DNA of 64,000 bases. It comes from Escherichia coli (GTDB lineage: Bacteria > Pseudomonadota > Gammaproteobacteria > Enterobacterales > Enterobacteriaceae). The notes under the pieces are model-generated. The model made no database searches, was not told the DNA's origin, and worked only from the letters and a program-made list of their open reading frames with translations. Position 1 is the first letter of the stretch, and each line of letters starts with the position of its first letter. The position numbers were made by a program, and so were the translations under genes. The stretch lies in assembly GCF_003991155.1 (NCBI RefSeq), contig NZ_CP031293.1. The stretch is one strand, 5' to 3'. Positions 58,606 through 61,600 of this stretch are shown piece after piece.

Positions 58606-61600
58606 ATGGACGTCAGTCGCAGACAATTTTTTAAAATCTGCGCGGGCGGTATGGCTGGAACAACAGTAGCGGCATTGGGCTTTGCCCCAAAGCAAGCACT
58701 GGCTCAGGCGCGAAACTACAAATTATTACGCGCTAAAGAGATCCGTAACACCTGCACATACTGTTCCGTAGGTTGCGGGCTATTGATGTATAGCCTGGGT
58801 GATGGCGCGAAAAACGCCAGAGAAGCGATTTATCACATTGAAGGTGACCCGGATCATCCGGTAAGCCGTGGTGCGCTGTGCCCGAAAGGGGCCGGTTTGC
58901 TGGATTACGTCAACAGCGAAAACCGTCTGCGCTACCCGGAATATCGTGCGCCAGGTTCTGATAAATGGCAGCGTATTAGCTGGGATGAAGCATTCTCCCG
59001 TATTGCGAAGCTGATGAAAGCTGACCGTGACGCTAACTTTATTGAAAAGAACGAGCAGGGCGTAACGGTAAACCGTTGGCTTTCTACCGGTATGCTGTGT
59101 GCCTCCGGTGCCAGCAACGAAACCGGGATGCTGACTCAAAAATTTGCCCGCTCCCTCGGGATGCTGGCGGTAGACAACCAGGCGCGCGTCTGACACGGAC
59201 CAACGGTAGCAAGTCTTGCTCCAACATTTGGTCGCGGTGCGATGACCAACCACTGGGTGGATATCAAAAACGCTAACGTCGTGATGGTGATGGGCGGTAA
59301 CGCTGCTGAAGCGCATCCCGTCGGTTTCCGCTGGGCGATGGAAGCGAAAAACAACAACGATGCAACCTTGATCGTTGTCGATCCCCGTTTTACGCGTACC
59401 GCTTCTGTAGCGGATATTTACGCACCTATTCGTTCCGGTACGGACATTACGTTCCTGTCTGGCGTTTTGCGCTACCTGATCGAAAACAACAAAATCAACG
59501 CCGAATATGTTAAGCATTACACCAACGCCAGCCTGCTGGTGCGTGATGATTTTGCTTTCGAAGACGGTCTGTTCAGCGGCTACGACGCTGAAAAACGGCA
59601 ATACGATAAATCGTCCTGGAACTATCAGTTCGATGAAAACGGCTATGCGAAACGCGATGAAACACTGACTCATCCGCGCTGTGTGTGGAACCTGCTGAAA
59701 GCGCACGTTTCCCGCTACACGCCGGACGTAGTAGAAAACATCTGCGGTACGCCAAAAGCCGACTTCCTGAAAGTGTGTGAAGTGCTGGCCTCCACCAGCG
59801 CACCGGATCGCACAACCACCTTCCTGTACGCGCTGGGCTGGACGCAGCACACCGTGGGTGCGCAGAACATCCGTACTATGGCGATGATCCAGTTGCTGCT
59901 CGGTAACATGGGTATGGCCGGTGGCGGCGTGAACGCATTGCGTGGCCACTCCAACATTCAGGGCCTGACTGACTTAGGCCTGCTCTCTACCAGCCTGCCA
60001 GGTTATCTGACGCTACCGTCAGAAAAACAGGTTGATTTGCAGTCGTATCTGGAAGCGAATACGCCGAAAGCGACGCTGGCTGATCAGGTGAACTACTGGA
60101 GCAACTATCCGAAGTTCTTCGTTAGCCTGATGAAATCTTTCTACGGCGATGCCGCGCAAAAAGAGAACAACTGGGGCTACGACTGGCTGCCGAAGTGGGA
60201 CCAGACCTACGACGTCATCAAGTATTTCAACATGATGGACGAAGGCAAAGTCACCGGTTATTTCTGCCAGGGCTTTAACCCGGTTGCGTCCTTCCCGGAC
60301 AAAAACAAAGTGGTGAGCTGCCTGAGCAAGCTGAAGTACATGGTGGTAATCGATCCGCTGGTGACTGAAACTTCTACCTTCTGGCAGAACCACGGCGAGT
60401 CGAACGATGTCGATCCGGCGTCTATTCAGACTGAAGTATTCCGTCTGCCTTCGACCTGCTTTGCTGAAGAAGATGGTTCTATCGCTAACTCCGGTCGCTG
60501 GTTGCAGTGGCACTGGAAAGGTCAGGACGCGCCGGGCGAAGCGCGTAACGACGGCGAAATTCTGGCGGGTATCTACCATCATCTGCGCGAGTTGTACCAG
60601 GCCGAAGGTGGTAAAGGCGTAGAACCGCTGATGAAGATGAGCTGGAACTACAAGCAGCCGCACGAACCGCAATCTGACGAAGTAGCTAAAGAGAACAACG
60701 GCTATGCGCTGGAAGATCTCTATGATGCTAATGGCGTGCTGATTGCGAAGAAAGGTCAGTTGCTGAGTAGCTTTGCGCATCTGCGTGATGACGGTACAAC
60801 CGCATCGTCTTGCTGGATCTACACCGGTAGCTGGACAGAGCAGGGCAACCAGATGGCTAACCGCGATAACTCCGACCCGTCCGGTCTGGGGAATACGCTG
60901 GGATGGGCCTGGGCGTGGCCGCTCAACCGTCGCGTACTCTACAACCGTGCTTCGGCGGATATCAACGGTAAACCGTGGGATCCGAAACGGATGCTGATCC
61001 AGTGGAACGGTAGCAAGTGGACGGGTAACGATATTCCGGACTTCGGCAATGCCGCACCGGGTACGCCAACCGGGCCGTTTATCATGCAGCCGGAAGGGAT
61101 GGGACGCCTGTTTGCCATCAACAAAATGGCGGAAGGTCCGTTCCCGGAACACTACGAGCCAATTGAAACGCCGCTGGGCACTAACCCGTTGCATCCGAAC
61201 GTGGTGTCTAACCCGGTTGTTCGTCTGTATGAACAAGACGCGCTGCGGATGGGTAAAAAAGAGCAGTTCCCGTATGTGGGTACGACCTATCGTCTGACCG
61301 AGCACTTCCACACCTGGACCAAGCACGCATTGCTCAACGCAATTGCTCAGCCGGAACAGTTTGTGGAAATCAGCGAAACGCTGGCGGCGGCGAAAGGCAT
61401 TAATAATGGCGATCGTGTCACTGTCTCAAGCAAGCGTGGCTTTATCCGCGCGGTGGCGGTGGTAACGCGCCGTCTGAAACCGCTGAATGTAAACGGTCAG
61501 CAGGTTGAAACGGTGGGTATTCCGATCCACTGGGGCTTTGAGGGTGTCGCGCGTAAAGGTTATATCGCTAACACTCTGACGCCGAATGTCGGTGATGCAA

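Follow-up and report, generated by a model that had tools for sequence, protein, structure and literature searches.

The in-frame UGA codon of Escherichia coli fdnG and the SECIS hairpin that follows it

The fdnGHI locus and its interrupted reading frame

The window, the whole 64-kb stretch of Escherichia coli DNA that was analysed, carries the fdnGHI operon on its plus strand. The genes and the features of the fdnG product are the following:

58606..61653, plus strand: fdnG coding sequence, 1015 codons plus stop, reading through UGA codon 196
58615..58632, plus strand: Tat motif S-R-R-Q-F-F of the N-terminal signal peptide, read from the translation
59191..59193, plus strand: UGA codon 196, predicted Sec196 (Mo ligand), aligned to X196 of 1kqf_A
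61666..62550, plus strand: fdnH, Fe-S (beta) subunit (RefSeq; NCBIfam TIGR01582, 482 bits against a cut-off of 335)
62543..63196, plus strand: fdnI, cytochrome b (gamma) membrane subunit (RefSeq; NCBIfam NF007558, 486 bits against a cut-off of 339)

The gene order fdnG-fdnH-fdnI is that of the operon, with fdnH as the co-transcribed partner of fdnG, and FdnH and FdnI each exceed the equivalog cut-off of their family. E. coli strain 2016C-3878 (NZ_CP029747.1) matches the region at 100% identity, and positions 1-25000 of the window are collinear with the same record, so that the window comes from this chromosome or from that of a clone-mate. A consensus scan of 58300-63400 for promoters and terminators gave no match ahead of fdnG and a lower number of sites than shuffled sequences do, a null result of the kind expected for an activator-dependent promoter. 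An antisense open reading frame of 389 amino acids (58780-59949, minus strand) was dismissed as the shadow of the strongly supported plus-strand gene.

Translation of 58606-61653 encounters one internal stop, the TGA at 59191-59193, which is codon 196 and is read locally, within 59180-59199, as GCGCGCGTC TGA CAC GGA. A mechanical listing of open reading frames thus returns two of them in a common frame, 58606..59193 (195 amino acids) and 59242..61653 (803 amino acids), and 819 further codons follow the UGA in frame. The earlier note had described fdnG as two open reading frames split by a single TGA at this place with the frame continuing, and it was exact in both position and frame.

The product obtained by reading through the UGA aligns over residues 1-1015 with chain A of PDB entry 1KQF, entitled "formate dehydrogenase, nitrate-inducible, major subunit" (2397 bits), the placeholder at residue 196 falling on the X of the deposited chain. 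The NCBIfam family TIGR01553 matches residues 2-1014 with 1622 bits against a cut-off of 814, and the Pfam Molybdopterin domain, at residues 107-589, encloses the stop at codon 196. The residues V-U-H-G-P stand at positions 195-199, U-H being aligned with X196-H197 of 1kqf_A; a UHxP motif is given for FdhA (PMC13188914). On these full-length alignments we assign 58606-61653 to FdnG, the catalytic Mo-bisMGD/[4Fe-4S] alpha subunit of formate dehydrogenase-N. The S-R-R-Q-F-F motif presumably acts in Tat export, a role that we take to be established for FdnG. A Tat signal peptide is mentioned in PMC3636253.

A SECIS element adjoining the UGA

Two structural features overlap or follow the codon:

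59188..59246, plus strand: SECIS element of the fdnG/fdoG type (Rfam RF01989), predicted; hairpin proper at about 59194-59236
59205..59222, plus strand: apical mini-hairpin, presumed SelB-binding part (GG-U-AGCAA / GUC loop / UUGCU-CC)

The Rfam model SECIS_3 (RF01989) matches 59188-59246 over its full length (model positions 1-59) with 84.3 bits against a gathering score of 63. Searched in 4 kb, this match has an E value of 8.9e-20; over the full 64 kb of the window the value is 1.4e-18, and no other SECIS match is found there on either strand. The fdhF-type model, SECIS_2, gives the same element 28.8 bits, below its gathering score of 70. With a match so far beyond chance, we identify 59188-59246 as a bacterial SECIS of the fdnG/fdoG type.

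The UGA lies directly 5' of the hairpin, adjoining its start at 59193/59194. The minimum-free-energy fold pairs 59193-59238 as an interrupted hairpin of -14.6 kcal/mol. The claim that the 40 nucleotides or so downstream of the codon form a stem-loop is borne out by this fold and by the SECIS_3 score, and the interval 59191-59240 does cover codon and hairpin; the conserved element extends slightly past 59240, to about 59246-59250. When 59191-59240 is compared with shuffled sequences its stability is unexceptional (z = -1.03, 25 of 200 shuffles folding at least as well). For this reason stability is not used as evidence here, and we rely on the covariance model and on covariation.

The apical part is best described by numbering from the U of the UGA. 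G15 and G16 are followed by a bulged U17 (59207), by A18-A22, by a loop made of G23 (59213), U24 (59214) and C25, and by U26-U30 and C31 C32 on the returning side, the stem comprising nucleotides 15-32 and starting 11 nucleotides after the UGA. In the minimal SECIS of E. coli the upper stem-loop likewise stands 11 nucleotides from the UGA, and the bulged U17 and the loop residues G23/U24 are the determinants recognized by SelB (PMC8659212); the apical hairpin of the window reproduces this published geometry. In the Rfam consensus register the lower helix of the enterobacterial sequence includes two non-canonical pairs (A-C and A-G), whereas the minimum-free-energy fold sets it in a shifted register with a bulged G. 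In the alignment of 79 sequences described below, this helix is 84% paired in the Rfam register and 81% in the minimum-free-energy register. Neither register is clearly better, and the exact pairing of the lower stem is not settled.

Conservation, covariation and comparison with known elements

Within E. coli, 5432 of 5433 records carry the 59-nucleotide element without a single difference. It is present in 5425 of 5426 genomes, at a median of two places per genome, which are fdnG and fdoG. The 3.3-kb gene region, on the other hand, shows 95-99% identity in 5300 of 5452 records, so that a near-invariant element sits in a gene whose overall divergence is 1-5% in most genomes.

To look beyond the species, one genome per species was surveyed with a degenerate DNA pattern for A-R-V-(TGN)-H-G-P-T-V, which found at least 120 loci. 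The Sec-site codon of the 120 loci listed is TGA in 115, TGT in three and TGC in two; this 115:5 ratio of TGA to Cys codons describes the matches listed and is not a population estimate. The TGA loci among the matches listed are drawn from many phyla and represent 79 distinct 63-mers. Among the same matches the 63-mer of the window recurs identically at 22 loci, from Yersinia, Photorhabdus, Citrobacter, Enterobacter, Providencia, Klebsiella, E. albertii and others.

In an ungapped alignment of the 79 distinct sequences the apical helix is 97.8% paired, and at four of its seven pairs both partners have changed (G-C/A-U/C-G, G-C/U-G, A-U/C-G/G-C and G-C/U-A). Its covariation score is 0.229, compared with 0.116 ± 0.006 after shuffling and no more than 0.095 for slid registers of the partner strand. 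At least six of the seven apical pairs, together with G23 and U24, are kept in 113 of the 115 TGA loci listed; the invariance of U17 in this set follows from the search pattern itself, in which GT was prescribed there. The two exceptions, L029 and L079, are Desulfovibrionaceae and evidently use a different hairpin. These two and a third divergent locus, L118, are TGA loci among the matches listed that do not reach the SECIS_3 gathering score.

The Cys-coded loci present another picture. None of the five listed keeps the apical features (two to five of the seven pairs are left, with C at position 23), and none has a Rfam SECIS match. Such homologues, exemplified by Snodgrassella alvi (L012) and Vogesella (L041 and L048), resemble fdnG in the active-site motif V-x-H-G-P-T-V and in the downstream F-G-R-G-A-M-T-N but have TGT or TGC in place of TGA and are devoid of the apical helix, of G23/U24 and of a Rfam SECIS. 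The third position of the Thr codon is G in nearly all TGA loci listed and variable in the Cys loci. The codons for G-R-G-A-M-T-N look similar even in the Cys-type homologues.

Closer to the window, all 24 Enterobacterales-like loci (more than 80% identical in amino acids across the 120 codons that surround the site) have TGA. Cys-encoding close orthologues, which the earlier note had named, in combination with missing sel genes, as a finding that would speak against recoding, were thus not encountered among these loci, the five Cys homologues of the 120 listed being distant and without the hairpin. Where the 24 loci agree in the amino acid, they also agree in the codon at a rate of 0.96-1.0 between the Sec codon and codon +19, and of about 0.3-0.8, typically 0.5, in the flanks. 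This freezing of synonymous positions argues for selection on the RNA and not on the protein alone.

The near-invariant synonymous codons occupy 59191-59250 (Sec codon to about +19), a stretch longer than the hairpin of about 40 nucleotides, and fdnG and fdoG have 60 identical nucleotides in common amid 60-90% identity. One could envision a recoding role of its own for the unpaired 3' flank, GGUGCGAUGAC (in spacing, or in contacting the ribosome or SelB), or gene conversion between fdnG and fdoG that maintains the segment; we regard either as unlikely. Plain codon bias in the very conserved G-R-G-A-M-T-N could also account for the frozen stretch, and the data do not separate it from the other two readings.

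The closest known system is fdnG of E. coli K-12, which is the same gene in the same operon with the same codon 196 and whose SECIS is identical at 59 of 59 positions. The K-12 gene differs by 48 nucleotides over 3048 (98.4% identity), none of them within 59140-59350, its protein by four substitutions (D127E, F342L, A366E and A666S), and its strain background is also different, the window being 2016C-3878-like. The paralogue fdoG, which encodes formate dehydrogenase-O at another locus, has the identical 59-nucleotide element (84.3 bits on SECIS_3) and Sec at codon 196 but is set in coding sequence that is about 60-90% identical per 30-nucleotide block, and its regulation differs from that of fdnG.

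In fdhF, the gene for formate dehydrogenase-H, the UGA is likewise followed directly by a hairpin with its apical stem-loop 11 nucleotides downstream, with U17 and G23/U24 and with the same dependence on SelB. The fdhF element nevertheless belongs to another family, Rfam RF01988 (SECIS_2), K-12 fdhF scoring 87.1 bits on SECIS_2 and 35.8 on SECIS_3. Its apical stem is UGCA/UGCA with a GGUC loop, that of fdnG AGCAA/UUGCU with a GUC loop; and its protein, unlike FdnG, is cytoplasmic, 715 amino acids long and without a Tat signal. The comparison with the fdhF and fdnG consensus that the earlier note had proposed therefore places the window element above threshold on the fdnG/fdoG model and at full identity with the two K-12 genes, with the U17/G23/U24 geometry common to fdhF.

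Selenocysteine recoding and the alternatives to it

We consider it virtually certain that UGA codon 196 of fdnG is a programmed selenocysteine codon, with a SECIS hairpin of about 45 nucleotides directly after it, and that the gene is intact. The codon, the frame, the match to the structure model, the covariation, the synonymous constraint, the sel genes and the identity with the K-12 element are direct observations on which this reading draws. The verdict of recoding as opposed to a pseudogene, already given in the earlier note, is upheld by the model match, the conservation and the full-length homology to FdnG. The sel genes that it had asked after all carry intact annotations in NZ_CP029747.1, the record with 100% identity to the region: selD at 1823741-1824784, tRNA-Sec (selC) at 4405032-4405126, and selB and selA at 4296023-4299255. 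Among 5426 complete E. coli genomes, the K-12 genes used as queries find selAB in 5425, selD also in 5425 and selC in 5424.

The mechanism of selenocysteine insertion is established for E. coli K-12. Operating in the same manner here, SelD would make selenophosphate and SelA would convert Ser-tRNA(Sec), the charged product of selC, to Sec-tRNA(Sec). SelB, the elongation factor, in complex with GTP and Sec-tRNA(Sec), would bind the apex of the hairpin (U17, G23/U24) 11 nucleotides downstream of the UGA; when the ribosome is at the UGA, the tethered complex would deliver Sec in competition with release factor 2. In-frame translation would then resume and yield the 1015-residue FdnG, in which Sec196 would be a ligand to the active-site molybdenum of the bis-MGD cofactor. 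Exported via Tat, FdnG would serve the formate:menaquinone oxidoreductase as its catalytic subunit and, together with FdnH and FdnI, would oxidise formate in the periplasm when nitrate is respired.

Several of these steps have published counterparts. Sec was found at position 196 of E. coli FdnG and FdoG by mass spectrometry, Cys was never found there, and when Sec-tRNA(Sec) is missing, as in a selC mutant, translation of fdnG and fdoG ends at UGA196 (Zorn et al. 2013, PMC3636253). A 2026 review describes the SECIS elements of the three E. coli formate dehydrogenases as the best characterised (PMC13188914). The same review cites Berg, Li, Heider and Stewart (1991) and Berg, Baron and Stewart (1991) for the fdnG UGA and the experimental requirement for the stem-loop. 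From the identity of 59 of 59 nucleotides with the K-12 fdnG element, the published mass spectrometry and the 1991 work by Berg as cited in PMC13188914, we infer that SelB binding and Sec insertion probably take place in this strain as well.

Three other readings were weighed, to which, even taken together, we give next to no weight. The one that survives best sees the UGA chiefly as a regulated terminator, or as a site of near-cognate read-through, so that the relevant product would be the 195-residue protein or a Trp- or Cys-containing one and not a selenoprotein. The arrest of fdnG translation at UGA196 without Sec-tRNA(Sec) (PMC3636253) is in line with it, as is the low efficiency of UGA read-through given in a review (PMC8659212). 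However, the 195-residue fragment comprises no more than the Fe4S4 domain and a portion of the Molybdopterin domain and so cannot be a functional dehydrogenase, Cys has never been found at position 196 (PMC3636253), and the conservation of the SECIS, like the presence of the sel genes, points to Sec insertion as what selection has maintained. We hold this reading to be very improbable.

More improbable still is that a nonsense mutation has made fdnG a pseudogene, or that the two open reading frames are two genes (195 and 803 amino acids), the hairpin being incidental. Mechanical calling does split the sequence in this way, and both fragments have been deposited as separate proteins in public collections. 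Conservation nevertheless refutes this reading: the TGA and its 59-nucleotide context are identical in essentially all of the 5425 E. coli genomes that hold the element, and a TGA occurs in 115 of the 120 loci listed, across many phyla, along with a hairpin that covaries, which is not the distribution of a lineage-specific stop. The stop falls inside a single Pfam domain and on Sec196 of a solved full-length structure, the codons downstream of it are under constraint both at the protein level and at synonymous positions, and Sec196 has been seen in mass spectrometry (PMC3636253). Finally, the chance that a TGC or TGT Cys codon has been turned into this TGA by a mistake in sequencing or assembly is negligible: Cys-coded homologues do exist (5 of the 120 loci listed, for instance in Snodgrassella and Vogesella), but their downstream sequence is different and without a SECIS, and the 59-mer, TGA included, recurs in 5432 independent E. 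coli records, twice per genome (fdnG and fdoG).

The expectation that automated annotation would split the gene holds for generic callers, the 195- and 803-residue fragments each being found on at least 1000 contigs. It does not hold for RefSeq/PGAP, which gives a single 3048-nucleotide fdnG coding sequence (WP_012311994.1). In public collections the name "sulfate ABC transporter substrate-binding protein" has even been given to one of the 195-residue proteins.

The fdnG UGA and its SECIS are already known, a fully characterised textbook case, and selenocysteine recoding at this locus brings nothing new biologically. What it touches is the hygiene of annotation: the locus is properly recorded as one selenoprotein coding sequence of 1015 codons with a translation exception at codon 196, and not as a pseudogene or as two fragments. 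Since the split halves populate public collections in such numbers, it is useful to flag sites of this kind in sequence scans.

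Sequence shared by fdnG and fdoG

The selenocysteine codon of fdnG and the SECIS hairpin behind it lie within a segment of 60 identical nt common to fdnG (59188-59247) and its K-12 paralogue fdoG (5183-5241 in locus L133). The segment begins 3 nt before the Sec codon, and the neighbouring 30-nt blocks of the two genes are only 60-90% identical. Within fdnG, freezing of synonymous positions covers 59191-59250 and so reaches about 12 nt past the hairpin. The extended freezing and the shared segment could reflect codon bias, an additional constraint or gene conversion between the paralogues. 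The enterobacterial sequence leaves the pairing of the lower SECIS helix (59194-59238) ambiguous. Two mismatches, A-C and A-G, occur in the Rfam register; the minimum-free-energy fold has a shifted register with a bulged G.

Splitting of the gene at UGA also accounts for a misannotation in the public databases. The NCBI protein EFN8991448.1, a 195-aa N-terminal FdnG fragment in the protein cluster P0004, carries the name "sulfate ABC transporter substrate-binding protein".

tRNA-Sec loci outside the window

In Candidatus Burkholderia verschuerenii (locus L011), a tRNA-Sec gene (492-583) is found about 10 kb from the fdh SECIS (11047-11105), and a fragment of a group II intron stands at the end of the locus. 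At 4405032-4449715 of NZ_CP029747.1, the genome that matches the window, an integrase comes after tRNA-Sec (selC), together with an island of about 45 kb reaching as far as setC. The island contains a second copy of tnaCAB, IS fragments and toxin-antitoxin genes; selC is a well-known site of island integration.

Neighbours of fdnGHI

The formate dehydrogenase genes are flanked by the following features:

53387-55374, genes for leucine-rich-repeat proteins, including one gene fragment
56135-57235, minus strand, intact porin gene labelled "OmpC" (366 aa)
63247-63809, minus strand, toxin-antitoxin pair (RelE/ParE-family toxin; HigA-family antitoxin, yddM)

The porin gene, which adjoins the leucine-rich-repeat protein genes, lies directly upstream of yddG/fdnG; the K-12 porin gene in this position, yddL, is a pseudogene. 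On the other side, the toxin-antitoxin pair immediately follows fdnI.

Insertion sequences and small RNAs

Mobile elements and small RNA matches are found elsewhere in the window:

1093-1156, minus strand, RydC small RNA (Rfam RF00505, 83.1 bits)
1572-1721, minus strand, hokB
1795-3239, IS150
3161-3315, minus strand, Rfam "sok" match (62.5 bits against a gathering score of 59)
14243-15965, IS200/IS605-type unit with tnpA and insQ/TnpB
42831-43811, IS621 (IS110 family) transposase copy, between yddE and nhoA

IS621 is of a type known for recombination guided by a bridge RNA. In the IS200/IS605-type unit, tnpA has an internal stop and is annotated as a pseudogene; the adjoining insQ/TnpB gene for an RNA-guided endonuclease is intact. 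RydC is absent from the RefSeq features shown for the stretch around 1093-1156.

Relative to K-12, the hokB region (1572-3315) carries a 1445-nt insertion, made up of IS150 and a 3-bp target duplication. The "sok" label at 3161-3315 looks unreliable, since the match spans the IS150 end and its flank rather than the K-12 sokB coordinates. The insertion point falls in the sokB and hokB-mokB leader region, some 13-15 nt before mokB begins; comparison with K-12 shows that IS150 splits sokB, and the insertion probably separates hokB from its own promoter.
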